Notes: a model not told the origin generated them from the sequence alone. Positions 23,624 through 63,336 are shown, numbered from the stretch's first letter. The stretch is 64,000 nucleotides of DNA from an uncultured Gammaproteobacteria bacterium (GCA_963976795.1 CAXBLT010000006.1:81791-145790), one strand, 5' to 3'. Numbers and translations: made by a program.

Positions 23624-25501
23624 TTATTTTTTAAAGACTTCTGCGATTTCTTCAAGGATAGAGACATCATCAATCGTTGCTGGCACTTTAAATGCTTCAT
23701 CATCAGCAATTTTTTTCATGATGCCGCGTAATATTTTGCCAGAACGCGTTTTAGGTAGTCTTTTCAAAACAAGCACTTTTTTAAAAGCCGCAACAGGGCC
23801 AATATCATTTCGCACACGCGCAATAAGATCTTGCATGATCTTGTCATGGTCAGTAGTAACACCATTATTTAATACAACTAGTCCTATAGGTAGTTGGCCT
23901 TTTAATTGATCATTAACACCTATGACAGCACACTCGGCAACATCAGGATGCGCCGCTAGCACTTCTTCCATCGCACCTGTCGATAAACGATGGCCCGCAA
24001 CATTAATCACGTCACCGAGTCGGCTCATCACCCAGACGTCACCATCTTCATCAATATATCCAGCATCCCAGGTTATATAATAGCCATCATAAACGGAAAG
24101 ATAAGAATCAATATAAGCTTGGTCATTTTTCCATAAAGACTGTAAACAACCGGGGGGCAGAGGTAATTTTAAGGCTATTTTTCCCATTTCGCCTGCGGGC
24201 AATGGAATGCCTTGTTCATCAAGCACTTGCAAGTCATAGCCGGGTACAGGCCTTGATGTAGAACCATGTTTTACAGGTAACTGTTCAAGCCCCATGCAGT
24301 TAGCAGTGATCGCCCAACCCGTTTCAGTCTGCCACCAGTGATCAATAACAGGCACACCTAGTTTATCTTCGGCCCACTCTATAGTGGCAGGGTCACAACG
24401 TTCACCGGCAAGGAAAAGCGTTTGTAGTGAAGATAAATCATAGTCTTTAATAAAATCACCATCAGGGTCGTTACCTTTAATTGCCCTGAAGGCCGTTGGT
24501 GCTGTGAACAGTGCGTTTACTTTATGTTGTTCAATAACACGCCAGAAGGCACCGGCATCGGGCGTCCCTACGGGCTTGCCTTCATAAAGAACCGTGGTAC
24601 AACCACGCAATAAAGGGGCATAGACTATATATGAATGCCCCACCACCCAACCAACATCTGACGCAGACCAAAATACGTCACCAGGATTTATATTATAGAT
24701 ATTCTTCATCGACCAATTCAGCGCAACGGCATGCCCCCCGTTATCTCGCAAGACTCCTTTTGGCGTACCCGTTGTTCCCGAAGTATAAAGAATATATAAA
24801 GGGTCAGTCGCGTCGACAGGAAAACAGTCAACCGCTTCAGCCATTGCACTAGCCTCTTGCCAATCTATATCACGCCCCTCTATCAAATTCACTTTGCATT
24901 GAGGTCGTTGCAGAATAATACAGGCCTCTGGTTTATGATTTGCTGTTGCAATAGCTGCATCAAGTAGTGGCTTATACTCGATGATACGATTCACTTCGAT
25001 ACCGCAGGATGCGGAGACAATCACTTTCGGTTGCGCATCATTAATACGTGCGGCCAGTTCATTAGAAGCAAAACCTCCAAATACAACTGAATGGATAGCA
25101 CCAAGTCGCGCACAAGCCAACATAGCGATCACTGCTTCGGGAACCATTGGCATATAAATAATTACTGTATCTCCTTTACCAACTCCTTGATCGCTTAGTA
25201 CGCCTGAAAAGTTAGCTGTCAGATCGCGTAATTCTCTATAGCTAAATCGCTTAATTGTATCTGTTACGGGACTGTCGTAAATGAGGGCAGTTTGGTCAGC
25301 ATGTCCGTTTTCAACATGTCTATCCAACGCATTAAAGCAGGTATTTAGCTTTCCGTCTGGAAACCATTTATAAAATGGCGGGTTTGCATCATCAAGAACT
25401 TTTGTAAAGGGTTTCTTCCAATCTATGTCCTTTGCTGCATCAGACCAATACGCTTCAGGGTTTTCTAATGAACGTTTATAAGCTTTTAAATATTCAGACA
25501 T
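23624..25501 (-). CDS. prpE: Propionate--CoA ligase (acetyl/propionyl-CoA synthetase family).
   Basis: 625 aa. Collinear with E. coli PrpE ('IHSVVFGGFAS', 'YTSGTTGTPKGV', 'DVGWVVGHSYIVYAPLL', 'LPKTRSGKILRG'). Located in a methylcitrate-cycle gene neighbourhood. Confidence 0.8.
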   Translation of the reverse strand: MSEYLKAYKRSLENPEAYWSDAAKDIDWKKPFTKVLDDANPPFYKWFPDGKLNTCFNALDRHVENGHADQTALIYDSPVTDTIKRFSYRELRDLTANFSGVLSDQGVGKGDTVIIYMPMVPEAVIAMLACARLGAIHSVVFGGFASNELAARINDAQPKVIVSASCGIEVNRIIEYKPLLDAAIATANHKPEACIILQRPQCKVNLIEGRDIDWQEASAMAEAVDCFPVDATDPLYILYTSGTTGTPKGVLRDNGGHAVALNWSMKNIYNINPGDVFWSASDVGWVVGHSYIVYAPLLRGCTTVLYEGKPVGTPDAGAFWRVIEQHKVNALFTAPTAFRAIKGNDPDGDFIKDYDLSSLQTLFLAGERCDPATIEWAEDKLGVPVIDHWWQTETGWAITANCMGLEQLPVKHGSTSRPVPGYDLQVLDEQGIPLPAGEMGKIALKLPLPPGCLQSLWKNDQAYIDSYLSVYDGYYITWDAGYIDEDGDVWVMSRLGDVINVAGHRLSTGAMEEVLAAHPDVAECAVIGVNDQLKGQLPIGLVVLNNGVTTDHDKIMQDLIARVRNDIGPVAAFKKVLVLKRLPKTRSGKILRGIMKKIADDEAFKVPATIDDVSILEEIAEVFKK

Positions 25502-25603
25502 ATCCTAGCCTCGATTCTTCAATATTTGCAATTAAGCTAACCTATTTCCACCTGTGGAATAATCAACTTTATTGCCAACAAACTCAATTCTCTCAAGTGT
25601 CTC

Positions 25604-27988
25604 TCACGCCTCAACTCCGGCAATATATAGCCATGTATCAATAACAGTATCTGGATTTAAAGAGATACTCTCAATACCTTCATCTAATAACCATTTTGCA
25701 AGATCCGGGTGATCAGAAGGTCCTTGGCCGCAAATACCGACATACTTCCCGGCATTTTTACAGGCTTTGATGGCGCGACTTAGCATAAACTTCACTGCTT
25801 CATCGCGTTCATCAAACAAATCGGAAACCAGTCCTGAGTCTCGATCAAGTGCTAAGGTTAATTGCGTCATATCATTAGAACCAATTGAGAAACCATCAAA
25901 ATATTCAAGAAACTGTTCAGCCAAGATTGCATTACTCGGAACCTCGCACATCATAATCAATTTTAAACCTTCTTTTCCTCTCTCCAGACCATATTTTGCT
26001 AATAACTCAACGACTTGCTTCGCCTGTCCTACAGTGCGCACGAAGGGAACCATAACCCATACATTGGCCAAGCCCATATCTTCTCGTACATAACGTAGGG
26101 CACGACATTCCAGCTCAAAACATGCTTCAAACTCATCTGACAAGTAACGTGACGTACCTCGATAACCTATCATAGGGTTTTCTTCTTTCGGTTCATATCG
26201 CTCGCCACCAAGTAAATTAGCATACTCATTAGATTTGAAATCAGATAGACGTACGATAACCGGGTTAGGCGCGAATGCAGCAGCCAATGTAGATATACCT
26301 TCGGCCAGGTTCTGCACATAGAAATCGACAGGACTTGCATAGGCTCCGATACGCTCATCTATAGATGCTTTTATCGATGCTTCTTGATCACCGTATTCCA
26401 GTAACGCTCTTGGGTGGATACCAATCTTGTTATTTATAATAAATTCCAGTCGTGCCAAACCAACACCTGCATTTGGAATAGACGCAAATGACATTGCCTT
26501 ACCTGGGTTACCCACATTCATCATGATTTTTAACGGTGCTGGCGGCATGTTGTCTAGTTCTGCGCGGTTGACCTGAAAGTCCAGTTTACCTTCATAAACG
26601 TGTCCATTTTCTCCTTCAGAACAAACCACCGTGACAACGTCATTATAATTTATCTTCTCAGTCGCATCACCACACCCTACGACGGCGGGAACACCCAGTT
26701 CGCGTGCAATAATTGCAGCATGACAGGTTCGTCCACCGCGGTTAGTCACTATCGCCGATGCGCGCTTCATTATCGGCTCCCAGTCAGGATCCGTCATTTC
26801 CGTTACTAAGACATCACCATCTTGCAGGTCGTCCATATCTTCCAACCTTTCGATGACTTTTGCTTTACCTGCCCCTATTTTCTGGCCTATTGCAGCGCCA
26901 CTAATAAGCAAGTTACCTTTTTCATTTAGCTGATAACGTTCGATTACATTTGTATTCTCTCGGCTTTGTACTGTCTCAGGGCGCGCCTGGACAATGTAGA
27001 TTTTCTTACTCTCGCCATCCAAAGCCCATTCGATATCCATAGGACGGCCGTAATGCTTTTCAATTATCACCGCCTGCCGAGCAAGTTCTTCTAATTGCTC
27101 ATCATTAAGGCAAAAGACCGAAGACTCTTCAGGTGGGACATTAACTGTTTTTACCAATTCACCATTACTAGAATCTTCGTTATATATCATTTTAATCGCT
27201 TTGCTGCCGACACTACGACTTAATACTGATGGCTTATGCTGCGCTAATGATTTTTTATAGACATAGTATTCATCCGGGTTTACTGCACCTTGCACTACCG
27301 TTTCGCCTAAACCATAACTACCCGTAATAAATACAGCATCATCAAAACCAGACTCTGTGTCCAGAGTAAACATTACACCACTTACGCCTAGATCGCTGCG
27401 CACCATGCGTTGTAAACCTGCTGATAAAGCAACTTCTTCATGGGCAAAGTTTTGATGTACGCGATAAGCAATAGCTCGATCATTATATAAAGATGCAAAG
27501 ACCTCTTTAACTCTTAGTAGCACATCATCAATACCACGCACATTTAAAAATGTCTCTTGCTGACCTGCAAATGAAGCATCAGGTAAGTCTTCAGCAGTTG
27601 CAGAAGACCGTACGGCAATAGAACAGTCTTTATCTCCACCGCTCATTTCTTGATAAGCATTTTCCATGGATTCTCGTAACAACGTTTGGAATGGTGCTTC
27701 GATAATCCATTGACGGATTTCTTTGCCAGCTGTCGTCAACTGCTTCACATCATCGACATTTAACCCTTGCAGTCTAAGTTCTATGCGTTCACGTAATTTA
27801 TTATGTTCAAGAAAATCCCAAAAAGCCTTTGCTGTTGTGGCATACCCCCCCGGCACACTAACACCAGCACCAGATAGATTGCTGATCATTTCTCCCAGTG
27901 ATGCATTTTTGCCACCAACAAGTCCCACATCTCCCATGCCCAAGTTTTGTAGTGGCATGATGTAGTCATTTGAAATCAATTTTGTCAT
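25604..27988 (-). CDS. ppsA: Phosphoenolpyruvate synthase.
   Basis: 794 aa. The N-terminus aligns with E. coli PpsA ('[20 protein letters not shown]'). Phosphohistidine-domain motif '[17 protein letters not shown]'. PEP-utilising C-terminal domain. Confidence 0.95.
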
Positions 27989-28029
27989 AGCTTTTCTTTC
28001 TCAATAAACCTTTAAGATTAAATTTCTAT

Positions 28030-28860
28030 TTAGTTGTTCTTTAATAACTGTTTTTCCTTCACTACATTTACTGCGATCTCCTCGATAGACATAGCCGTTG
28101 AATCAAGAATAAATATGCCCGCTTTTTCCATCATTATTCCTGCATGTTTAACTTCATGCTGACATTTTTTCAAAGTCGCATAAACAGTATTTGGTCGGCG
28201 TTGTTGTCGAATAGCACTGAGTTGATCGGCACGGATCGTCAGGCCAACTATTTTATCCAGATACGGTAATAAAAACCCAGGTAATTTATCATTATCAAGG
28301 TCATCATCGGTTAATGGATAATTAGCTGCTTTTATCGAGAAATGCATTGCTAAATATAGACAAGTTGGTGTTTTTGCAGAACGTGACACACCAACCAGGA
28401 TAACATCGGCCTTATCAAATAAATTCGTTCTGATACCATCATCATTTTTAAGTGTAAAGTCGATAGCGTCCATTTGCTTTTTATAATCTTCATCACCAAA
28501 TTCTTCGTGTGCTTTACCAATCGTATGAGATGATTTGATCTGTAAACTCTTTTCGAGTGGCTCTATAAACGAATTAAATAAACTAATGACACAGGCGTCG
28601 GTTGAAGAAATAAACTGTTGAATCTCATCGTTGACCAATGTGCTGAACACAATCGGCTGTACACCACTGGCCTCGTATTCGCGCTGTATCTCACCTGCAA
28701 CAAAATGAGCTTCCATTTCGGTAATGACAAATGCGAAGGTTCTATCTATAAACTCAACACTATCAAACTGAGAGAGTAAACTTTGGCCAAGTGACTCAGC
28801 CGTTTTTCCTGTTCGATCAGAAACATAAAAAACAGCACGTTTATTTTGTTTATTATCCAT
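28030..28860 (-). CDS. ppsR: PEP synthase regulatory protein (bifunctional kinase/pyrophosphorylase, DUF299).
   Basis: 276 aa. 'RAVFYVSDRTGKTAE' and the P-loop-like 'VILVGVSRSAKTPTCLYLA' are characteristic of PSRP/YdiA. Confidence 0.9.
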   Translation of the reverse strand: MDNKQNKRAVFYVSDRTGKTAESLGQSLLSQFDSVEFIDRTFAFVITEMEAHFVAGEIQREYEASGVQPIVFSTLVNDEIQQFISSTDACVISLFNSFIEPLEKSLQIKSSHTIGKAHEEFGDEDYKKQMDAIDFTLKNDDGIRTNLFDKADVILVGVSRSAKTPTCLYLAMHFSIKAANYPLTDDDLDNDKLPGFLLPYLDKIVGLTIRADQLSAIRQQRRPNTVYATLKKCQHEVKHAGIMMEKAGIFILDSTAMSIEEIAVNVVKEKQLLKNN

Positions 28861-28889
28861 TATTGATCTTTATAACAAATAAACCAGCT

Positions 28890-28917
28890 CAGAAAAACAA
28901 AAGCCATCAGAGATGGC
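28890..28917 (-). terminator. Rho-independent terminator after prpC, separating prpR-prpB-prpC from ppsR-ppsA.
   Basis: Minus strand: GCCATC-tct-GATGGC followed by TTTTGTTTTTCT. Confidence 0.5.
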
Positions 28918-28980: not shown

Positions 28981-30135
28981 TTACTTACGTTTACTAATTG
29001 GTACAAATTTTTGATTATGTGGTCCAACATAATTAGCACTAGGACGAATGATCTTTCCATCTTCACGTTGTTCAATGACATGTGCTGCCCAACCAGAAGT
29101 GCGTGAAATTACAAACAATGGAGTAAACATCGCTGTGGGAACATTCATCAATGAATAAGATACCGCTGAATACCAGTCCAGATTAGGAAACATCTTCTTT
29201 TCTGCCCACATTACCTTTTCAAGTCGTTCAGCAACTTTATACATTTTCAGATTCTTAGCTTGCGTGCCCAATCGTTTCGCCACATCTCTGATCATTTTAT
29301 TACGAGGATCACCTGTAGTATAAACAGGATGTCCAAAACCAATGACTATTTCTTTACGAGCCATACGTTCTTTTATATCAGCCTCCGCTTCATCCGGGCT
29401 TGCGTAACGTGATTGGATATCAAATGCAACCTCGTTCGCACCACCATGCTTTGGTCCGCGCAACGCACCAATGGCTCCAGTTATGCTGGAAAACATATCT
29501 GATCCAGTTCCTGCAATAACACGACCGGTAAATGTTGAAGCGTTATACTCATGTTCGGCATAAAGGTTTAATGAGGTATGCATTGCTCGAACCCATGCGG
29601 CAGAAGGTTTCTTACCATGTAAAAGATGTAAAAAATGGCCGCCAATAGAATCGTCATCTGTTTCAACTTCAATGCGGGTACCATTAACTGCATAGTGGTA
29701 CCAATAGAGCAACATTGAACCAAAGCTGGCCATCAATTTATCTGCAATATCTCTTGCACCAGCTGAATTATGATCTTCTTTTTCAGGCATTACTGCACCT
29801 AATACAGAACAACCCGTTCGTAATACGTCCATTGGATGAGCCGAAGGTGATAATTGCTCCAACGAATTCTTCACTGCGATGGGCAAACCACGCAATAATT
29901 TCAATTTAGTTTTATAGGCAGTGAGTTCAGCCGTTGTTGGTAATTTTCCATGCACCAATAGATGGGCAATTTCTTCAAACTCACAGGTATCAGCAATATC
30001 CAAAATATCGTAGCCACGATAATGCAGATCATTTCCTGTTAAACCAACGGTGCATAAGGCTGTATTCCCAGCAGCAGTCCCACTTAAAGCAACGGACTTC
30101 TTAGGCTTGGGCTTTTGTATTGTTTTCTTGGTCAT
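28981..30135 (-). CDS. prpC: 2-methylcitrate synthase (citrate synthase family).
   Basis: 384 aa citrate-synthase fold protein. It overlaps prpB by 4 bp. The N-terminus '[33 protein letters not shown]' matches PrpC. Confidence 0.85.
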
Positions 30136-31022
30136 GGATTGTCTCCCGAAAATAATTCATCCAGTTTTTGTTCATAATCGTGATACGCAAGGTAATCATA
30201 AAGTTCTGCTCGGCTCTGCATTAGATCGATTACATTTTTTTGAGTGCCTTCTTTACGCAAGCTCGAATAAACTTTAAGTGCTGCGGCATTCATTGCACGA
30301 AATGCTGATAGTGGATACAGCGCCAGACTGACATTGACAGAGGCCAGTTCTTCGGTTGAAAATAAAGGTGTTGAACCAAATTCAGTAATATTAGCCAGCA
30401 CTGGCACACCGACAGCATCGACAAATTTTTGATACATGCTGAGTTCAGTCATCGCTTCGGGAAAAATCATGTCCGCACCCGCTTCAACGCAAGCGCATGC
30501 ACGATCAATCGCTGCATCTAGTCCTTCTACTGATAAGGCATCTGTTCTCGCCATAATCACGAAGTCAGGGTCTGTCTTGGCATCAACAGCCGCCTTAATC
30601 CTGTCGACCATCTCTCCTTGAGTAACTATCGCTTTATTGGGACGATGGCCACAACGTTTTTGTTGAACTTGATCCTCAATATGAACCGCACCAGCTCCTG
30701 CTTTGATCATTGATCGTATTGTTCTTGCTATATTAAATGCACCGCCCCAGCCAGTATCAATATCAACCAACACAGGTAACTCGGTAACATCTGTAATACG
30801 ACGGAGATCAGTTAACACATCTTCCAAACTTGTAATACCCAGGTCAGGTATGCCACATGATCCTGCAGCGACACCACCTCCGGAAATATATAAAGCTTTA
30901 TATCCAGTAGCATCAGCTAAACGTGCATGATAGGCATTTATAGCACCGACTACCTGTAATGGTTTTTCTTCTTCAACAGCAAGCCGAAACCGTGCTCCTG
31001 CTGATATCAATTTATTACTCAT
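30132..31022 (-). CDS. prpB: 2-methylisocitrate lyase.
   Basis: 296 aa PEP-mutase/isocitrate-lyase superfamily protein. '[29 protein letters not shown]' matches PrpB. Confidence 0.9.
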
Positions 31023-31043: not shown

Positions 31044-31733
31044 TTAATCTGTAATGGCTAAATGTTCATCAAGCATCTTTTCAACATTTATACGTGAACT
31101 TCTGATATGTCTCGACATTAAAAATTGTGCTAACTCACCATCATGCTGACGTATTGCATCAACAATTTGTCCATGTTCTACGAATGCTCGTGGCACACGT
31201 TTACTGACCATGCCGAATTGATATCGGTAAAGACGGATCAAATGATAAAGGTCATTAGAAAACATATCGATTAAATGGAAGTTTTTACTGCCTTTAATTA
31301 TCCGAAAATGGAAATCCATATCACCTTCTTTTTGATAGTAACTTTGGTCTTGTTTTATTTGATGCCGGTGTTTTTCAAGTAGCACATCGAGTTCGTTAAT
31401 ATCCTTATCACTCATATTTTCTGCCGCCTGTCTTGCCGCCAAACCTTCCAGAGACTCCCGAATAAGGTAAATCTCAACCAAATGTTGTCGCGTTAATGTA
31501 ACAACACGCGCTCCTACATTTGGTTTACGTTCGATTAAATTACATGTTTCAAGTCGACTTAGCGCCTCACGCAAAGGACCTCGACTGATACCAAATTCAT
31601 TTGCCAAAGCCGGTTCACTAATTTTTGATCCAGCTGGTATAATCCCTTCTACAATTGCATTCTGTAATTTACTACAGACTGTATCTGCTATAGTTGAAGC
31701 GATGACTGGCTCATTTTCAAGCGGCTCAGACAT
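31044..31733 (-). CDS. prpR: GntR-family transcriptional regulator with FadR-type C-terminal (FCD) domain; likely regulator of the prpBC operon.
   Basis: N-terminal wHTH 'IPAGSKISEPALANEFGISRGPLREALSRLE'. Length is 229 aa. It lies directly upstream of and co-directional with prpB-prpC. Palindromic operators sit in its own upstream region. Confidence 0.8.
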   Translation of the reverse strand: MSEPLENEPVIASTIADTVCSKLQNAIVEGIIPAGSKISEPALANEFGISRGPLREALSRLETCNLIERKPNVGARVVTLTRQHLVEIYLIRESLEGLAARQAAENMSDKDINELDVLLEKHRHQIKQDQSYYQKEGDMDFHFRIIKGSKNFHLIDMFSNDLYHLIRLYRYQFGMVSKRVPRAFVEHGQIVDAIRQHDGELAQFLMSRHIRSSRINVEKMLDEHLAITD

Positions 31734-31750
31734 AAATATTTAGCCTCATA

Positions 31751-31823
31751 TTGTTGACAATCTATCTATAAAAAGCGGATTTATTCGTTTAATTTAACAT
31801 TTCATATCATAATTGTCGACAAT
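31751..31823. promoter_or_regulatory. Bipartite operator copy 1: TTGTTGACAAT (31751..31761) and AATTGTCGACAAT (31811..31823), 18 bp upstream of the GntR start codon.
   Basis: The core TTGTCGACAA is a perfect palindrome. It fits the GntR/FadR-type t-GT-N-AC-a operator class. The same two boxes with the same spacing recur at 60058..60134 and 60676..60754. Confidence 0.45.
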
Positions 31824-34042: not shown

Positions 34043-34489
34043 TTATTCGCTGGGGATCTCAATTACTTCTTCCATCAGTACTTCAGTTAAATCCAACTTC
34101 CAAACTCCGTCTATAAAGACCCAATGATCGATTTCTTTTTCAATAATGGGAATAACATTAAACACATCACTGGCCTTGGTCCATGCATGTACTTGTGCTT
34201 TATTCCCGTTTACTTCAATAGCGGTCACACCACCATCAACAATATCAACCTGAGCTGATTGCATAACACCAACCCACTCTTCAACATACTTTTCTTTAGT
34301 TCTCCCATCTCGCATATTCTCTGTAACCATATCGTATGCCGTTGCAAAATCTTTTGATTGAACCGCATTAAAATATGTTTGTTGTAATGCTGCTATCGTT
34401 ACGCTTGCTTCATCGCCTCCACACCAACCCACTCTGATCACAGAAAAAAGAAGTAACAGTGTAACTGTCATTATTTTTACTATATTCAT
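34043..34489 (-). CDS. Hypothetical secreted protein (148 aa).
   Basis: Signal peptide 'MNIVKIMTVTLLLLFSVIRVGWC'. No recognisable motifs. Confidence 0.5.
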   Translation of the reverse strand: MNIVKIMTVTLLLLFSVIRVGWCGGDEASVTIAALQQTYFNAVQSKDFATAYDMVTENMRDGRTKEKYVEEWVGVMQSAQVDIVDGGVTAIEVNGNKAQVHAWTKASDVFNVIPIIEKEIDHWVFIDGVWKLDLTEVLMEEVIEIPSE

Positions 34490-43825: not shown

Positions 43826-45835
43826 ATGAGTCAATCACTAAAAGAAGCCGACATCAATACACACTTTTATTCCCAAAAAGATGTTGACCAAGCTTGGGAT
43901 AGTTTTCTTTGCTCAGGAGGGGCGTCAAAGAATCTGCCTGTACGCGATATGATAGCCAGCTCATGGGAGCGCTGCCTATCTCAAGGTGTCAATCCTGAGC
44001 AAACTGCAGCGCCGCTCTTAGCCACCGAGGGCACCTTACATATCCTTCGCCAAAATAATACTGATCTCATGAAATGCGCACGACCTGTCTTAGCACAGGC
44101 CAGGGTCTTTTTACGCGATCTTGACACAATATTAATTCTGACTGACTACAACGGGGTCAATCTGGATGTTGTCGGAGATCCTAAGTGTGTTGAAGATGCT
44201 GTCGGAATTGGAATGGTGCCAGGTAGTGGCTGGAAAGAGACTGTTTCCGGATCAAATGCTGTAGGTACAGCGATGGCAACGGGGATGCCTACACAAGTCC
44301 ACGGAGAAGAGCATTTCATACAAGGCTTTAAGCCCTGGACATGCACTGCTGGGATAATAAGCGATCCATATGACAATCAATTGATCGGCGTAATTGACGT
44401 TTCTGGCTTATCAGCCACATTTGATAAATTCCACGTCCCTTTAGTCGTATCATGGGCCAATCAAATTCAATTGTCACTCGCCAAAAACACCTCTGAGCAA
44501 TGGAGTCTCATCAGAGAAAACAGCCAGTGTGACTTTAAAAATAGTCACCGAAATGCTGGGAGAATGTTATTTGATACGCAAGGAAGGCTGGTTGACCACT
44601 CTCAAAATGCCTGTTCAATACTCAATTCACTCGGTATTGGATATGATCTTTCTATGAAGTCTCGCTTATCGCTAGAGCGTTTTGGCGGAGACGAGATTGT
44701 GTATCCTCATGACGCAGGGTTATGGCTATCAAGTGATTGGATCGAACCCGTCAAGGATAAAAACGAGGTGATAGGTTTCAAGATAGAACTACCCACAAAC
44801 AAACGCTCCTCGCAACGAACAAACCCATCGTCTGCTATTGCAGCGGTTAAAATCAACTCACAAGCAGATCCTTTTGGCAAAATATCAGGACAAAGTGCAT
44901 CAGTTAGAGCCAGCATTGAAAAAGCTAGTAAAGCAGCTACGACACCACTTCCTGTTCTAATTTTAGGCGATACAGGTGTCGGAAAAGAAATGTTTGCTCG
45001 AGCTATACATGAAGCGAGTAACTTCGCTAATGGTCCATTTATTGACCTGAACTGTGGCGCTTTCACTAAAGATATTTTAAGCAGTGAACTATTTGGTCAT
45101 GTCGAGGGTGCTTTCACAGGCGCAAAAAGAGGCGGTATGATGGGGAAAATTGAAGCTGCAAATGGCGGCACACTATTTCTGGATGAGATAGGTGAAATGC
45201 CACTTGAGATTCAACCTGTTTTTCTAAGGGTTTTACAAGAAAGAAAGATACATCGTGTTGGTGCTATTGCACCAATTCCAGTCAACTTTAGACTCATTGC
45301 TGCCACAAATAGTTATCTTAAACGAGAAGTTTCTGAAGGCCGATTTAGAAAAGATTTATTCTTCCGTTTATCCACAGTTGCAATTGCGCTTGATCCTCTT
45401 TCAAGACGAAAAGAAGACATTGAAGAGATTGCACACTTAGTTTTAAAAGAAATTCAAAATTCTCAAGAGATTGTGCCTAAACGAATATCCGCCTCTTTAA
45501 TAACCTCACTAAAAAACCGGGAATGGCCAGGCAACATTAGAGAGTTAGTAAATGTGATTGAATGCATGTGTTATATGTCTTCAAATGAGACCCTAACCAT
45601 TGAGGATTTACCTGCCGGTTATCAACCGGGAGAATCACTGATCAGCGGAGTACCTTCTGAACAAAATCAACCGTCTGAGTCTCTATCGAACCTGGATATT
45701 GCAGAACAACAAGCAATTGAAAATGCAATTATTGAGTTTGGTGGCAATATCACTCAAGCAGCTAAAAACCTGGGCATCGCAAAAGGTACCCTCTATCGAA
45801 AAATGAAAAAATATAAATTAGAAAATCCTCGTTAG
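43826..45835 (+). CDS. Sigma-54-dependent enhancer-binding transcriptional activator of the AcoR/AcxR type (N-terminal sensory domain, AAA+ sigma54-interaction domain, C-terminal Fis-type HTH).
   Basis: AAA+ motifs: Walker A 'GDTGVGKE', GAFTGA motif 'GAFTGA', 'GGTLFLDEIGEMP'. C-terminal HTH 'AAKNLGIAKGTLYRKMKKY'. N-terminal '...ASSWERCLSQGVNPE...' as in AcoR-family regulators. Confidence 0.85.
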   Translation: MSQSLKEADINTHFYSQKDVDQAWDSFLCSGGASKNLPVRDMIASSWERCLSQGVNPEQTAAPLLATEGTLHILRQNNTDLMKCARPVLAQARVFLRDLDTILILTDYNGVNLDVVGDPKCVEDAVGIGMVPGSGWKETVSGSNAVGTAMATGMPTQVHGEEHFIQGFKPWTCTAGIISDPYDNQLIGVIDVSGLSATFDKFHVPLVVSWANQIQLSLAKNTSEQWSLIRENSQCDFKNSHRNAGRMLFDTQGRLVDHSQNACSILNSLGIGYDLSMKSRLSLERFGGDEIVYPHDAGLWLSSDWIEPVKDKNEVIGFKIELPTNKRSSQRTNPSSAIAAVKINSQADPFGKISGQSASVRASIEKASKAATTPLPVLILGDTGVGKEMFARAIHEASNFANGPFIDLNCGAFTKDILSSELFGHVEGAFTGAKRGGMMGKIEAANGGTLFLDEIGEMPLEIQPVFLRVLQERKIHRVGAIAPIPVNFRLIAATNSYLKREVSEGRFRKDLFFRLSTVAIALDPLSRRKEDIEEIAHLVLKEIQNSQEIVPKRISASLITSLKNREWPGNIRELVNVIECMCYMSSNETLTIEDLPAGYQPGESLISGVPSEQNQPSESLSNLDIAEQQAIENAIIEFGGNITQAAKNLGIAKGTLYRKMKKYKLENPR

Positions 45836-51027: not shown

Positions 51028-51882
51028 CTAAGTTCTTAAACGAGAAAGCGTATCAAGTACTAATTCAGGTGTTGTATCTTCAGGAATAGTAAGATAGTTA
51101 AAATTATTTCCTGATGAAACAGTTTCCTGCCCTTCCCATAATGGTTTGCTGATATCCTTACCGATAGAACTTTCTGTTCCTGCGCTGTCTACAGGGGCAA
51201 TAGAGAAATTAACATCTTCAGGTACACTAAAACCAGCATCTGAAAAAGGAAGGTGTAATCCCACTGACCAACGGTAATGTTTAGTAACGTTATATATCGG
51301 CTGATACCAGGTCAATTCTTCTATGCTTTGGGGCATTGAATCAGGATCTTCTCTCAGTAACACACCTGATAAATCCACTTCGCTAAAGTATCTCAAATAA
51401 TCAGCTACATACATTGAGACAGTGTCTATATGTGTTTCTTCGGGTTCTACATCGACCCCATTAGCAGCCTTGTTTGCTTTGATTAACAAACAACGTGGTG
51501 ACGGTATAACTAATACAATCGGCACTGAGCCGCCATAGTTATTCCCAATTGCCGTTAGCACTTCTGCTAACAACTCCCTTGGAGCAAAAGCTTCCAGCAT
51601 TGTTTTTACCGCAACTGTTATGCGTTTTTTACCAGCCATCGATGGGATAGCTTCTTCATCTTCTTGCATCCAATGATGAAACAGATCCCAGATGTCGATT
51701 ACAACAACGTCTGCATTTACTAAACCATGTGCCTGTCCATAAAAAGACATATAAGCAGGAGGATTAGTCCATGGGTTTTCTCCTTCTGCTAATAACAACT
51801 TTTTGGTATAGGCATTGAAATCAATCCAAAGCTTAGGAGGTCCGTCTCCAACAGATAAATAGTTAACTAAATCTATAGCCAT
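51028..51882 (-). CDS. Conserved hypothetical protein (about 32 kDa). It is a candidate fifth (epsilon-like) subunit of the carboxylase complex. This is inferred from position and size only.
   Basis: 284 aa. It is 2 bp downstream of the HyuB-like gene and 30 bp upstream of the CoA ligase. Acetophenone carboxylase has a 34-kDa epsilon subunit in the same operon position (remembered from the literature, not verified by alignment). Confidence 0.45.
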   Translation of the reverse strand: MAIDLVNYLSVGDGPPKLWIDFNAYTKKLLLAEGENPWTNPPAYMSFYGQAHGLVNADVVVIDIWDLFHHWMQEDEEAIPSMAGKKRITVAVKTMLEAFAPRELLAEVLTAIGNNYGGSVPIVLVIPSPRCLLIKANKAANGVDVEPEETHIDTVSMYVADYLRYFSEVDLSGVLLREDPDSMPQSIEELTWYQPIYNVTKHYRWSVGLHLPFSDAGFSVPEDVNFSIAPVDSAGTESSIGKDISKPLWEGQETVSSGNNFNYLTIPEDTTPELVLDTLSRLRT

Positions 51883-58845: not shown

Positions 58846-58861
58846 AGCATTTATCATGCCA
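58846..58861 (-). promoter_or_regulatory. Candidate sigma-54 (-24/-12) promoter, TGGCAT-gataa-ATGCT, about 120 nt upstream of the first carboxylase gene.
   Basis: The minus strand reads TGGCATGATAAATGCT. GG and GC are spaced exactly as in the TGGCAC-N5-TTGCW consensus. Confidence 0.5.
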
Positions 58862-59008: not shown

Positions 59009-60022
59009 CTATACATCCTTGACACGAATTATCAACTTGCCTGTATTTGCGCCCGAATATAATTTTTTAACTGTTTCCAAGGCATTCTCCAAGCCATCAA
59101 CAACATCCTGGCGTACCTTTACCCTGCCTTCGCCCATCCATTGAGTCAGTGCGCTAATAGCCTCAGGATATCTATCCATATAATCAAGAATGATAAACCC
59201 TTGGATCTTAAGACGCTGCATTAACACCATTCCGTAATTTTTCGGCCCATGAACTTCACCAACAGCATTGTATTGAGACATGAGTCCGCAGGTTGAAATA
59301 CGTCCATTTAAATTCATTTGTTTTAGACAGGCATCAAGTATTTCGCCACCGACGTTGTCGAAATAAACATCAATTCCAGCTGGGCACGCTTGATGTAATG
59401 CCTCACTTATATTTTCAGTTTTGTAATTTATGGCCTTATCAAAGCCAAGGTCTTCAGTAATCCATCGGCATTTTTCATCCGTTCCTGTAAGTCCAACAAC
59501 ATGGCAACCTTGAATCTTGGCAATCTGTCCAACAATCGATCCGACTGCTCCTGCAGCGGTAGAAACAACAACTGTTTCACCTGCTTGTGGATGAGTAATA
59601 TCAAGTAAGCCGAAATAAGCTGTCGGGCCAACGAGGGCGAATGTGCCAAAAGCATCAACAATCGAAACAGAGCCCGTATCACCCATAACACTGACTGTTT
59701 CAGGTGTGCCAATTTGGTAGTCCGCCCAAGAACCTAAGCCGCTAACAATATCGCCTTCTTTAAAAACGGCATTCTTGCTTTTAACAACCGTCCCACATAC
59801 TACGCCGCGCATCGGATCATTGAGTGCTACTGGCGGCATATACTGATCCATATCGCTCATCCAGATACGGTTAGTAGGATCTAAAGATAGGTAATTAAGA
59901 CGAAAGAGGCATTCTCCCGTATCAGGTTCAGGTAGAGATTCTTCTTCAAGACTTAAGACGTCGTTCGTAATATCCCCAATAGGACGCTTACGCAATCGCC
60001 AGACACGGTTGATTTCAGACAT
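59009..60022 (-). CDS. NADPH-dependent alkenal/enone oxidoreductase (MDR family, YncB/CurA/PTGR-like).
   Basis: 337 aa. 'RLNYLSLDPTNRIWMSD' aligns with E. coli YncB/CurA 'RTVYLSLDPYMRGRMSD'. C-terminal 'GKLIIRVKDV' resembles 'GKVVIRVAGDD'. Confidence 0.85.
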   Translation of the reverse strand: MSEINRVWRLRKRPIGDITNDVLSLEEESLPEPDTGECLFRLNYLSLDPTNRIWMSDMDQYMPPVALNDPMRGVVCGTVVKSKNAVFKEGDIVSGLGSWADYQIGTPETVSVMGDTGSVSIVDAFGTFALVGPTAYFGLLDITHPQAGETVVVSTAAGAVGSIVGQIAKIQGCHVVGLTGTDEKCRWITEDLGFDKAINYKTENISEALHQACPAGIDVYFDNVGGEILDACLKQMNLNGRISTCGLMSQYNAVGEVHGPKNYGMVLMQRLKIQGFIILDYMDRYPEAISALTQWMGEGRVKVRQDVVDGLENALETVKKLYSGANTGKLIIRVKDV

Positions 60023-60057: not shown

Positions 60058-60134
60058 ATTGTTGACAATTATATCGATAAAAACGAGTTTATAACGCGTA
60101 AATTAGCATTTCAACCCTATATTGTCGACAATTA
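60058..60134. promoter_or_regulatory. Bipartite operator copy 2: ATTGTTGACAATT (60058..60070) and ATTGTCGACAATTA (60121..60134), upstream of the YncB-like reductase gene.
   Basis: Same two boxes and about 60-bp box-to-box spacing as at 31751..31823. The intervening sequence is also conserved with copy 3 ('aaattagcatttcaaccctat'). Confidence 0.45.
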
Positions 60135-60200: not shown

Positions 60201-60659
60201 TCAATCATTTACTACCTGAAATACTTCGTATTCCACCTTACCAGGCACCAAACGCCCGCGTGCAACACAAAAGATATTATTCACCCAACTATATCGTGCG
60301 TCGCCAGTTTGCATCCGTGGGTTAGTAAAAAAATATTGGTCTCCGAAATTTGTCCCGCTTTCGCCTTCAAGAGCCGCCATCGTTCCGGCAGTAAGTTCTA
60401 TTACCCCCGAATACTGAACATATATATTTGCACCATCATCTGTCTCGAAACTTGCCCTTACGTCTAGATGACCGTAGCCTTCCTCACTAATTGTCATCCA
60501 ATCTGCACAACTTGCGTCACGGATCTTACCGTTGAGTCTTTCACCCTTAAATTCTCCACCGTGTACTTCAAAGGTCATTCGTTTGCCAAAAGGACCATTA
60601 CCGATATCAAGCGCTGTACCTAAATTTGCATAATAAGTGAAAAGTGGTTCAAGTTTCAT
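60201..60659 (-). CDS. DUF3237-like small beta-barrel protein of unknown function (ATG start at 60659).
   Basis: The track ORF starts at a TTG (60686) that lies inside the operator box. The ATG giving 'MKLEPLFTYYANLG...' is preferred. 'GPFGKRMTFEVHGGEFKGERLNGKI...ADWMTISEEGYGHLDVRASFETDDGANIYVQYSG' resembles the DUF3237 family (assignment from memory). Confidence 0.6.
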   Translation of the reverse strand: MKLEPLFTYYANLGTALDIGNGPFGKRMTFEVHGGEFKGERLNGKIRDASCADWMTISEEGYGHLDVRASFETDDGANIYVQYSGVIELTAGTMAALEGESGTNFGDQYFFTNPRMQTGDARYSWVNNIFCVARGRLVPGKVEYEVFQVVND

Positions 60660-60675
60660 TGGATATCCTCTAAAA

Positions 60676-60754
60676 ATTGTTGACAATACTATGTGGTAAA
60701 TGCCAGTTTAGTTTGCTTAAATTAGTTTTTCAACCGTATATTGTCGACAATTAT
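60676..60754. promoter_or_regulatory. Bipartite operator copy 3: ATTGTTGACAATA (60676..60688) and TATTGTCGACAATTA (60738..60754), upstream of the DUF3237 gene.
   Basis: Same as copies 1 and 2. The spacer 'aaattagtttttcaaccgtat' is nearly identical to the copy 2 spacer. Confidence 0.45.
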
Positions 60755-61095
60755 GCCAGAGAGAGGCCACTATTATTGTAAGCCGAACAACGCGTAGTAT
60801 AGCTTTTTAGCATTTAAGTCTTAATTATAAACGGACATTAACATAATATTAACAAACCAAAACACTTGGTTTTCATTAATCCATACAGATCGAATGCAGT
60901 CATAAATAATACTGATATTAAACGTCCGATTCATTTTCGATCGTTTTACCTGAATACAGGCGAAACCTCTAATTGTTCAAAGACTAAAAGAATCAAGCAG
61001 ATAAAGGCAAAAAAAACGTCATTACGATTCTGGCATAATGGTTGCTGGCACAGAGCGGATTAATAATAAATTAAATAAATATTTAACGAGGAGAA

Positions 61096-63336
61096 ATGAA
61101 GATTACTACGGGAAATTCAAAAATTATATACACACTAACTGACGAAGCACCACTGTTAGCGACATACTCTTTGCTCCCCGTCATCAGAACATTTACCTCA
61201 GCAGCAGGTATAGATGTTGAGGTAAGTGACATTTCGGTGGCAGCTAGAGTACTTGCTACATTTCCTGATTACCTCACAGACGATCAAAAAGTTGAAGATA
61301 ACTTGGCAGAACTGGGGCGCCTAACTCAAGTACCTGATACAAATATTATCAAGCTTCCCAATATCAGTGCTTCAATTCCTCAATTAATAGCCACCATTGT
61401 TGAGTTGCAGTCAAAAGGCTACAACATTCCTGATTATCCTGAAGATCCAAAATCGGATGAAGATAAGCTTATTAAAGAACGCTATTCAAAAGTGCTCGGA
61501 AGTGCTGTCAATCCAGTACTTCGGGAAGGGAACTCAGATCGACGCGCACCCGATGCAGTTAAGCGAAGTGCACGCAAAAACCCACATTCAATGGAAAAGT
61601 GGAGCCCTGCGTCCCGCACCCATGTATCACATATGCATGGCGGTGATTTTTATAGTAGCGAAATTAGCATCACCATGGAACAGGCTTGTGATGTCAGGAT
61701 GGAACTGGAAACAACATCTGGTGAAATCATCATTCTGAAAGAAAAAACATCTTTACTGGAAGGTGAAATCATTGATGGTATGTATATGTGCAAACAGGCA
61801 CTTTGCGATTTCTATGAAGAACAAATGGAAGATGCTCGAGAGACAGGCGTCATGTTCTCCTTGCATGTAAAGGCCACCATGATGAAAATTTCTCACCCCA
61901 TCGTATTTGGTCATGCGGTTAAAGTTTTTTATAAAGAACTGTTCACTAAGTATGGCAACCTGTTTGATAAATTAGGGGTCAACCCGAATAATGGTATCAG
62001 TAGCGTTTACGATAAAATTCAAACCCTGCCCACTTCATTTCGCGAAGAGATAGAGCATGATATCCATGCCTGTTACCAACACCGCCCTGAACTAGCAATG
62101 GTTGATTCAGCAAAAGGAATTTCTAATCTACATGCACCCAATGATGTAATCGTTGATGCTTCTATGCCAGCAATGATTCGCTCAGGCGGCCAAATGTGGG
62201 GCCCAGATGGCAAACTAAAAGATACCAAGGCCGTGATTCCTGAAAGTACATTCGCACGCATTTATCAAGAAATGATTAACTTCTGTAAAACGCATGGCGC
62301 CTTCGATCCAACGACTATGGGTAGTGTGCCTAATGTTGGATTAATGGCCCAGAAGGCAGAAGAATATGGATCTCATGATAAAACCTTCGAGATCCAAACT
62401 GATGGTATCGCACGAATCGTCGATGATAAAGGTAATGTGCTGATCGAACAGAATGTGAAAGAAGGTGATATATGGCGCATGTGTCAAACTAAAGATGCTC
62501 CCATACGCGACTGGGTAAAACTGGCGGTAAATCGCGCACGCCAATCAGGCATGCCTGCCGTATTCTGGCTGGATGAGTACCGTCCGCACGAAATGGAATT
62601 AATAAAGAAAGTAAATCTTTATCTTCAAGATCACGACCTGACTGGACTCGATATCCAGATCATGTCCCAGACCCGCGCTATGCGTTATACCCTTGAGCGA
62701 ATTATTCGTGGTAAAGACACTATTTCTGTCACCGGCAACATCTTACGTGATTACCTCACTGACCTATTCCCAATTATGGAATTGGGAACCAGCGCCAAGA
62801 TGCTGTCGATCGTCCCTCTGATGGCAGGCGGCGGACTGTTTGAAACTGGTGCCGGTGGTTCTGCGCCGAAACATGTTAAGCAACTCATTGAAGAAAACCA
62901 TTTGCGCTGGGACTCTCTGGGTGAGTTTCTGGCCTTAGCCGTATCGCTGGAAGATATCAATATAAAAACGGGTAACAACAAGGCAAAAATATTAGCAAAG
63001 ACGCTAGATGAGGCCACCGGAAAATTACTGGATACTAACAAAGGTCCCTCACGAAGAACCGGTGAATTAGATAATCGTGGCAGTCATTTTTATCTTGCTA
63101 TGTATTGGGCGCAAGCGCTTGCAGAACAAACAGAAGATACAGAGCTACAATCTCAATTTTCTACATTGGCAAAATCGTTGGGAGAAAATGAACAAACGAT
63201 CGTTGAAGAACTAAACACTGCACAAGGCAAACCAGTTGATATCGGCGGTTACTTTATGCCAGTCATCGAAAAGGTAAGTAGCGTAATGCGTCCCAGTGCA
63301 ACGCTCAATAATATTTTGGGTACAGCACTGAAATAA
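61096..63336 (+). CDS. icd: Isocitrate dehydrogenase (NADP+), monomeric type.
   Basis: 746 aa. The N-terminus '[26 protein letters not shown]...[15 protein letters not shown]...[12 protein letters not shown]' is nearly collinear with the Azotobacter/Corynebacterium monomeric IDH. Confidence 0.95.

Follow-up and report, generated by a model that had tools for sequence, protein, structure and literature searches.

Introduction

A PrpR regulon of the Gamma- and Betaproteobacteria was reportedly reconstructed by comparative genomics in a study by Suvorova, Ravcheev and Gelfand in 2012. In-phase dual operators featuring cooperative binding or looping are known for AraR of Bacillus subtilis, a regulator with a GntR-type DNA-binding domain, as well as for GalR and LacI of Escherichia coli. 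The cooperativity of AraR is also mentioned in PMC4494728, where PrpR is grouped with the FadR-subfamily regulators featuring a GT-N2-AC core.

The GntR-family PrpR of Pseudomonas aeruginosa (PA0797), also referred to as PmiR, has been described to bind its own promoter and to repress the prp operon; deletion of the gene derepressed prp, and complementation brought the repression back (PMC9765439, PMC9728974). Its consensus, derived from phylogenetic footprinting, is ATTGTCGACAAT, located 84 bp upstream of prpR in P. aeruginosa on DNA that is shifted by the purified protein (PMC9765439). For PmiR, a promoter footprint, solved structures (7xp0 and 7xp1), and a proposed response to 2-methylisocitrate were reported (PMC9728974). 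In the site table of PMC4494728 (S1), PA0797 is represented by the sites ATTGTCGACAAT and ATTGTCGACACA, and most prpR operons have two to three sites.

In this study, a two-box element was analyzed in a window, i.e., the whole stretch of 64,000 nucleotides, originating from an uncultured gammaproteobacterium. A preliminary description of this window had proposed a bipartite palindromic operator in front of a GntR-family gene heading prpB-prpC, together with two further copies of it.

Three Two-Box Modules in the Window

Three modules were identified, each composed, on the gene strand, of ATTGTCGACAAT, 50–52 nt, and ATTGTCAACAAT, and each located immediately upstream of a minus-strand gene:

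31750-31823, minus strand: module copy 1, upstream of prpR, spacer of 50 nt
31812..31823, minus strand: distal operator O1 of copy 1, ATTGTCGACAAT, perfect 12-bp palindrome, invariant in five related genomes
31750..31761, minus strand: proximal operator O2 of copy 1, ATTGTCAACAAT, 16 nt to the prpR ATG, invariant in five related genomes
60058-60132, minus strand: module copy 2, upstream of the CurA-like reductase gene, spacer of 51 nt
60121..60132, minus strand: distal operator O1 of copy 2, ATTGTCGACAAT, invariant in four related genomes
60058..60069, minus strand: proximal operator O2 of copy 2, ATTGTCAACAAT, 35 nt to the reductase ATG, invariant in four related genomes
60676-60751, minus strand: module copy 3, upstream of the DUF3237 gene, spacer of 52 nt
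60740..60751, minus strand: distal operator O1 of copy 3, ATTGTCGACAAT
60676..60687, minus strand: proximal operator O2 of copy 3, ATTGTCAACAAT, 13 nt to the DUF3237 ATG

Read on the plus strand, the proximal boxes correspond to ATTGTTGACAAT (31750-31761, 60058-60069, and 60676-60687). The module pattern ATTGTCGACAAT-N{45,57}-ATTGTCAACAAT matched three times in the 64-kb window, always on the minus strand, compared to 0.00 matches expected. Searching both strands for ATTGTYGACAAT with at most one mismatch yielded 12 matches from the six boxes versus 1.37 expected, a number reached in none of 100 shuffles. Full boxes beyond the six were absent from the 64 kb, and the remaining 10-mers with one mismatch occurred at about chance level.

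The proposed two-box module and its two recurrences are therefore confirmed, as is the position of each recurrence just upstream of a minus-strand gene (reductase, 59009-60022; DUF3237, 60201-60662). A random genome-wide frequency of the motif with no promoter association had been named at the outset as evidence against function; in the 64-kb window, the boxes are in excess and all modules are located at promoters. Several measurements had to be corrected: the palindrome comprises 12 bp instead of 10 bp; the spacing, described as identical at about 48 nt, is only similar, at 50, 51, and 52 nt; and the proximal box ends 16 nt, and not 18 bp, in front of the prpR start codon.

The order of elements on the gene strand is the same in all three copies, the perfect palindrome being distal and the one-mismatch box (ATTGTCAACAAT) proximal, followed by the ATG after 13–35 nt. 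The 12-mers agree pairwise between the copies and show the same perfect-distal and imperfect-proximal asymmetry. The spacer had been regarded as partly conserved, which holds true: alignment of the three copies revealed a mean column identity of 70% over the aligned regions, with TGAAA, TAA.TT, and TTTA among the invariant columns. The spacers of copies 2 and 3 resemble each other.

A lone weak box without partner, TTGTTGGCAA, was found on the minus strand at 25572-25581, about 70 nt upstream of a propionate-CoA-ligase-like (prpE-like) gene (23624-25501). This gene was rejected as a target within the window on account of the single weak box in place of a module. Full two-box modules precede prpE in other taxa (L011, L064, L091, and L111).

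The Regulator Gene and the prp Operon

The gene downstream of copy 1 encodes a GntR-type regulator and is followed by two genes of the methylcitrate cycle:

31044..31733, minus strand: prpR, regulator with GntR winged helix-turn-helix and FCD domains, orthologue of P. aeruginosa PrpR/PmiR (PA0797)
30132-31022, minus strand: prpB, methylisocitrate lyase, NCBIfam equivalog with 538 bits (cut-off 353)
28981-30135, minus strand: prpC, 2-methylcitrate synthase, NCBIfam equivalog with 693 bits (cut-off 550)
28903-28917: terminator-like hairpin downstream of prpC, closing the prpR-prpB-prpC unit

Heading the unit, prpR is predicted to share its transcript with prpB and prpC (28981..31022), and the same gene order was found in L047, L088, L039, and L063. 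Upstream of prpR, genes for an AtoE-type short-chain fatty acid transporter, a GST, and a CoA-transferase A/B pair are located. A 148-aa ORF between the CoA-transferase and GST genes (34043-34489, minus strand) has no Pfam or NCBIfam match and shares 54–64% identity with its counterparts in relatives. Beyond the hairpin (25604-28917, minus strand), ppsR and ppsA, encoding a PEP synthase regulator and the enzyme itself, are arranged co-directionally, these genes being usually divergent; the prpE-like gene follows. Neither prpD nor acnD/prpF was found in the window.

The prpR product contains the Pfam domains GntR (PF00392, E=1e-16) and FCD (PF07729, E=4e-25) and matches PDB entry 7xp0 with E=1.8e-64 and 53% identity over 211 aa. 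The N-terminal, helix-turn-helix-containing sequence of 7xp0 is that of the PrpR_PAE (PA0797) entry in PMC4494728 S1. PMC9728974 names six residues as indispensable to PmiR (R95, H147, R184, H192, H214, and S218); in the window regulator, each of them is retained, as counted manually on the alignment. The distal boxes correspond letter for letter to the PrpR consensus (PMC9765439); apart from the P. aeruginosa paper, a literature search for the 12-mer returned only unrelated primers.

The initial assignment to a GntR/FadR-type operator thus agrees with boxes representing the PrpR consensus and with a GntR and FCD gene 53% identical to PA0797. As the orthologue PA0797 is a repressor of the prp operon that also binds to its own promoter, autoregulation together with a small local regulon represents the best reading, and it is supported by the consensus boxes, the orthologous regulator heading prpB-prpC, and the invariance of the boxes in relatives. 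The three modules would accordingly represent the known two-site PrpR operator, one of them autoregulatory and two at nearby genes; since motif and two-site arrangement have already been published, the element is of a known kind. The probability that each module is an operator pair of PrpR, the GntR/FadR-type repressor whose gene lies at 31044-31733, is estimated at roughly 0.8.

Copies 2 and 3 might instead be bound by another FadR-type GntR regulator encoded elsewhere, e.g., a PhnR-like paralogue, and form a separate regulon. PhnR sites were tabulated as ATTGTTGACAAT/ATTGTCAACAAT (PMC4494728 S1) and are nearly identical to the boxes of the window, and two-box modules also precede GntR/FCD genes only 24–27% identical to PrpR in Paraburkholderia and Novosphingobium. 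However, the 12-mers are pairwise identical between the copies, with the same asymmetry and a spacing of 50–52 nt, prpR is the only GntR gene among the annotated ORFs of the window, and relatives feature the same type of module upstream of prpR, the reductase gene, and a carboxylase gene. A second regulator is therefore considered improbable; because the PhnR motif is nearly the same, copies 2 and 3 are attributed to PrpR on the basis of the identity of the boxes and of the absence of another GntR gene from the window.

Predicted Core Promoters between the Boxes

Candidate sigma-70 promoters were located by a consensus scan, and all promoter positions given in this study are consensus matches only:

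31791..31819, minus strand: candidate sigma-70 promoter of prpR, -35 TCGACA inside O1, 17 nt, -10 TAAATT
60086..60114, minus strand: predicted core promoter of copy 2, -35 TTGAAA, 17 nt, -10 TAAACT
60705..60733, minus strand: predicted core promoter of copy 3, -35 TTGAAA, 17 nt, -10 TAAACT

The prpR promoter was inferred to lie at 31791..31819, and the arrangement of TCGACA, 17 nt, and TAAATT, TAAAAT, TAATTT, or TAGAAT is retained in L047, L088, L039, and L063. An alternative -35 element of copy 1 is ATGAAA, 6 nt past O1, a position that is canonical in other taxa. For copy 2, four genomes share without change the TTGA part of the -35 element and the AAACT part of the -10 element, and its geometry agrees with that of most PrpR promoters elsewhere.

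Box Spacing across Genomes and Metagenomes

To place the modules in a wider context, 185,579 species genomes were scanned for the pattern ATTGTCGACAAT-N{44,58}-TTGTYRACAA, resulting in at least 118 loci. Among the matches listed, the spacer measured 50 or 51 nt in 98 of 123 modules, and 55 of the 123 were located immediately upstream of PrpR orthologues, including those of Acinetobacter, Vibrio, Alcanivorax, Glaciecola, Moraxellaceae, and Burkholderiales. Further genes preceded by a module, again among the matches listed, encode PrpE, PrpD, an AcnD-type aconitase, AceE, an acyl-CoA ligase, and an ADC-family protein. The module upstream of prpR is kept from Vibrio to Burkholderiales with unrelated spacers.

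At a P. aeruginosa-type locus, box 1 is followed by 14 nt, TTGACC, 17 nt, TAGCTT, 8 nt, and box 2, amounting to a spacer of 51 nt; in P. syringae, the spacer comprises 61 nt, the extra turn falling between the -10 element and box 2. A metagenome scan allowing spacers of 35–65 nt yielded at least 131 modules, of which 99 were non-redundant among the matches listed. In these matches, the spacer lengths showed modes at about 40, 50–51, and 60–61 nt. The vector strength was highest for a 10.5-bp period (R=0.74 for the 99 non-redundant modules), compared to a maximum of 0.30 in 20,000 uniform nulls; the nominal Rayleigh p-value of about 2e-24 is overstated, because related sequences are not independent of each other.

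Both the 51- and the 61-nt spacer class are represented in the Pseudomonas-type PrpR group, whose members share at least 70% identity with PA0797, and several PrpR protein clusters contain mixed spacing classes. The -35/-10 pair with the best score falls inside the spacer, and its distances to the two boxes, measured from box to -35 and from -10 to box, likewise vary in increments of about 10 bp. The spacing classes, together with the bracketing of the core promoter by the pair, point to phase-dependent repression, which is probably cooperative. Spacing quantized in this way could also be obtained if each box were phased separately to RNA polymerase, with the dimers making no contact.

Some loci deviate from this scheme or extend it. 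In the Vibrio splendidus group (L019, L020, L026, L059, and L082), a third perfect ATTGTCGACAAT box is located upstream of prpR, over the -35 element (TTGATTGTCGACAAT) and in the middle of the pair. Modules with a spacing of 48–50 nt also precede GntR/FCD genes 24–27% identical to PrpR in L034, L040, and L079 (Paraburkholderia) and in L086 (Novosphingobium), and the two-box architecture may thus reach past PrpR. Furthermore, a membrane-like protein of about 231 aa is encoded right after PrpR modules in seven loci (L036, L037, L068, L075, L093, L107, and L007) from Colwellia, Pseudidiomarina, Bowmanella, and Pseudoalteromonas; the one representative searched, from L036, has no Pfam match. This protein is a candidate regulon member, possibly a transporter.

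Proposed Mechanism of Regulation

Each 12-bp palindrome would be occupied by one PrpR dimer. The perfect distal box is predicted to lie at or just upstream of the -35 element and the proximal box in the early transcribed region, directly ahead of the ribosome-binding site, so that the pair would bracket the core promoter. In the window copies, the box centres are 62–64 bp apart, corresponding to about six helical turns, and both dimers would therefore face the same side of the DNA. Their binding is probably cooperative, may involve a small loop, and would shut the promoter.

For PmiR, a fragment containing both halves of the promoter was bound in EMSA experiments, whereas three truncated fragments were not (PMC9728974), a pattern that fits cooperative two-site binding. 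However, its second footprint site was placed over the -35 region (-71 to -55; PMC9728974), and not at the proximal box at -33 to -22. Against a loop stand the dimeric state of PmiR in solution (PMC9728974) and the centre distance of 62–63 bp, which would be short for it.

When propionyl-CoA enters the methylcitrate cycle, 2-methylisocitrate, or perhaps 2-methylcitrate, would bind to the FCD domain, PrpR would leave the operators, and transcription would start. Initially, 2-methylcitrate or propionyl-CoA had been suggested as effectors; the one reported for the characterized orthologue is 2-methylisocitrate. Repression by PrpR, binding to its own promoter, and the effector are carried over from P. 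aeruginosa by analogy. In the window, the units controlled in this manner would be the autoregulated prpR-prpB-prpC, the enone reductase gene, and the DUF3237 gene.

It was also considered that PrpR activates or acts dually from the distal box (about -46 to -56), repression being exerted by the proximal box alone. In most taxa, the distal box is located just upstream of the -35 element, a typical class I activator position, and the perfect box is more often distal (68 modules) than proximal (33). Deletion of the P. aeruginosa orthologue, however, derepresses prp and complementation restores repression, and the distal box of the window lineage may itself hold the -35 element, which together make an activating role very unlikely.

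Conservation and Turnover in Close Relatives

Among public genomes, the gammaproteobacterial MAGs OFTM147, B_MB66, and SFB_Poly_Co_19 are the nearest, with 82–86% nucleotide identity. In the alignment of the prpR upstream region from five genomes, the two boxes are invariant, whereas flanks and spacer drift; the genomes aligned share roughly 80–86% nucleotide identity. The same was observed for the reductase upstream region in four genomes, where the two boxes and parts of the -35 and -10 elements are invariant and the other flank and spacer positions drift. Three adjacent genes, which carry modules in differing combinations, were compared between the window and these relatives:

Window: DUF3237, intact module; reductase, module; carboxylase gene (apcA-like), no module, sigma-54 promoter only
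L069 (SFB_Poly_Co_19): DUF3237, upstream region outside the locus; reductase, module; apcA-like, no module, sigma-54 promoter only
L071 (OFTM147): DUF3237, module largely deleted; reductase, module; apcA-like, module just downstream of the conserved sigma-54 promoter
L090 (B_MB66): DUF3237, boxes decayed and promoter spacer kept; reductase, module; apcA-like, module just downstream of the conserved sigma-54 promoter

In L090 (3020-3120, compared to 60676-60751 in the window), the boxes are mutated to AATTTCGGCAAT and ATTGTTAACAAa, and the spacer with the promoter is retained; in L071 (1640-1683), most of the DUF3237 module is deleted. The location of a PrpR module just downstream of the sigma-54 promoter in L071 and L090 suggests dual control of the carboxylase operon. 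A module likewise precedes the carboxylase gene in L051. At the orthologous locus beside an EF-G-like gene, a module lies upstream of a GST gene in SFB_Poly_Co_19 and of an ADC-family (acetoacetate decarboxylase) gene in B_MB66 (module coordinates in the relatives: L046, 5334-5407; L117, 2137-2211). Between close relatives of this marine gammaproteobacterial lineage, modules have arisen, decayed, or disappeared. In the metagenome sample, reductase and DUF3237 targets were not seen outside the lineage by the scan, which demanded a TGTCGACA second box, so that the TGTCAACA type of this lineage would escape it.

Such turnover might recall a selfish or structural repeat (MITE/REP-like) of about 75 bp with terminal inverted repeats, present by insertion. 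The module ends are indeed mutually inverted repeats, module presence varies before the same genes in close relatives, and copies 2 and 3 resemble each other in their spacers. Nevertheless, every copy has the same orientation and a short distance to the start codon, the -35/-10 pair is found at fixed offsets within the spacer, and modules with unrelated spacers precede prpR from Vibrio to Burkholderiales. Only three copies exist in 64 kb, all of them at promoters, and the decay in L090 strikes the boxes but spares the promoter. A mobile repeat, which should appear in many dispersed, gene-independent copies with target-site duplications, was rejected, given that such copies were not found in the 64 kb and that position, orientation, and conservation across families argue against it; its probability is considered minimal.

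Equally little credence is given to the boxes pairing in the mRNA leader as a regulatory hairpin (attenuator or riboswitch-like), which was rejected because the pairing seen in RNA folding (z=-2.6 for copy 1, but +0.1 for copy 2 and -1.9 for copy 3) follows trivially from near-identical palindromes, the invariance of the boxes leaves no covariation, the distal box at or upstream of the predicted -35 element is probably untranscribed from this promoter, and Rfam returned no match for the copy 1 region and, for the region of copies 2 and 3, one sub-threshold chance match to a miRNA family elsewhere (E=0.56).

Predicted Additional Target Genes and Neighbouring Clusters

The operator pairs of copies 2 and 3, read as PrpR sites, would place two further genes under the control of the regulator. 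These genes and the adjacent regulatory features are as follows:

59009..60022, minus strand: CurA-like NADP-dependent double-bond (enone/alkenal) reductase, CurA/PTGR1-type, predicted target of copy 2
60201..60662, minus strand: DUF3237 (UPF0311) protein, 153 aa, PF11578 with E=1.2e-40, predicted target of copy 3
58846-58861, minus strand: sigma-54-type promoter TGGCATgataaATGCT, 119 nt upstream of the acetophenone-carboxylase-like operon
43826-45835, plus strand: sigma-54 GAF activator gene, adjoining the nine-gene cluster

The reductase contains the Pfam domains ADH_N_2 and ADH_zinc_N and scores 360 bits against the NCBIfam curcumin reductase model, under the cut-off of 440; its best PDB match is 4b7c (E=2e-95), followed by double-bond reductases. 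PDB matches of the DUF3237 protein are 4pux and 3c5o, and the characterized DUF3237 members PhcF and PhcG are cofactorless decarboxylases (PMC9942872).

Downstream of the reductase gene, a nine-gene cluster extends on the minus strand (45.9–58.7 kb), encoding four acetophenone-carboxylase-like subunits, a 284-aa protein, an acyl-CoA ligase, an SCP2-type thiolase, and two MDR dehydrogenases. The ORF for the 284-aa protein (51028-51882, minus strand), located in the ketone-carboxylase operon, has no Pfam or NCBIfam match. In the window, a PrpR module is absent upstream of the carboxylase operon, and the sigma-54-type promoter is found there instead. This promoter TGGCATgataaATGCT and an element upstream of it, TTAGAACG...CGTTCGATTATAGAAC, are both kept in L069, L071, and L090. 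A second sigma-54-like motif, TGGCATaatggTTGCT, of a kind for which 0.5 occurrences are expected in the window, is located on the plus strand (61031-61046), 50 nt upstream of the monomeric isocitrate dehydrogenase gene (61096-63336).

The gene content suggests a single route, in which an enone would first be reduced to a saturated ketone by the enone reductase; its carboxylation by an ATP-dependent ketone carboxylase would lead to a beta-keto acid, and CoA ligase and thiolase would then release acyl-CoAs, including propionyl-CoA in the case of odd or branched skeletons. It is hypothesized that enone/ketone catabolism feeding propionyl-CoA is the physiological logic of the extra targets; a route yielding propionyl-CoA would explain their control by a methylcitrate-cycle signal.

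A more far-reaching proposal combines the spacing and turnover results: a phase-locked operator pair (five, six, or seven turns) around the core promoter would mediate cooperative, possibly looped, repression as a general feature of GntR-type PrpR throughout the Proteobacteria, and, in this lineage, the operator-promoter-operator unit of about 75 bp would serve as a portable cassette repeatedly placing enone reductase, DUF3237, ADC-family, GST, and acetophenone-carboxylase-like genes under methylcitrate-cycle control. This combined proposal is tentative, and somewhat less than even odds are assigned to it.

Comparison with Known Systems

The findings leave the overall picture of the PrpR family unchanged. 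A reading of the raw sequence alone recovered a true regulon, for which the regulator, the probable effector, and the targets can now be named; helical phasing of the box pair and the lineage-specific expansion and turnover of the regulon are modest additions to that first reading. Phasing by five, six, or seven turns represents a testable prediction on repression by GntR-type PrpR and offers a new view of the truncation EMSAs published for P. aeruginosa. For DUF3237 proteins and for the uncharacterized ketone-carboxylase cluster, a functional lead is obtained from the additional targets, in that they would feed propionyl-CoA to the methylcitrate cycle. Moreover, the operator-promoter-operator unit could act as a compact expression cassette responsive to propionate or methylisocitrate.

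PhnR, the GntR regulator of phosphonate utilization in Burkholderiales, recognizes a nearly identical palindrome (ATTGTTGACAAT) and is the best NCBIfam match of the window regulator, far below threshold (115 bits versus a cut-off of 271). It differs in its phn gene context, as opposed to prpBC in the window, and the window protein is much closer to PA0797.

With AraR and GalR/LacI, the modules have in common two palindromic operators at the core promoter, separated by integral helical turns and consisting of one strong and one weaker site. PrpR carries an FCD effector domain and is not of LacI type; the likeness concerns the proposed mechanism only and not the protein family.

The accessible part of the PrpR site table (PMC4494728 S1) agrees with the window in the consensus, in the two to three sites per prpR operon in Pseudomonas, Acinetobacter, Alcanivorax, Shewanella, Colwellia, and others, and in occasional extra single-gene targets per genome. 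Unlike the present analysis, that part of the table contains neither inter-site distances or phased spacing nor reductase, DUF3237, ketone-carboxylase, GST, or ADC-family targets.

Compared to P. aeruginosa, the operon of the window is restricted to prpR-prpB-prpC, with prpD and acnD-prpF unlinked in the window; the proximal box is ATTGTCAACAAT in place of ATTGTCGACACA, and the predicted -35 element is nearer to or inside the distal box. In the window, the enone reductase and DUF3237 genes are the predicted additional targets, whereas those reported for P. aeruginosa, pqsR and pqsH, are reached via an unrelated GC-rich motif. The two systems also have features in common: the window regulator is an orthologue of PrpR/PmiR with the same domains and conserved effector-site residues, both genes head prpB-prpC behind the same distal box ATTGTCGACAAT, and in the P. 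aeruginosa-type promoter, too, a second box follows 51 nt downstream, the pair bracketing the -35 and -10 elements.
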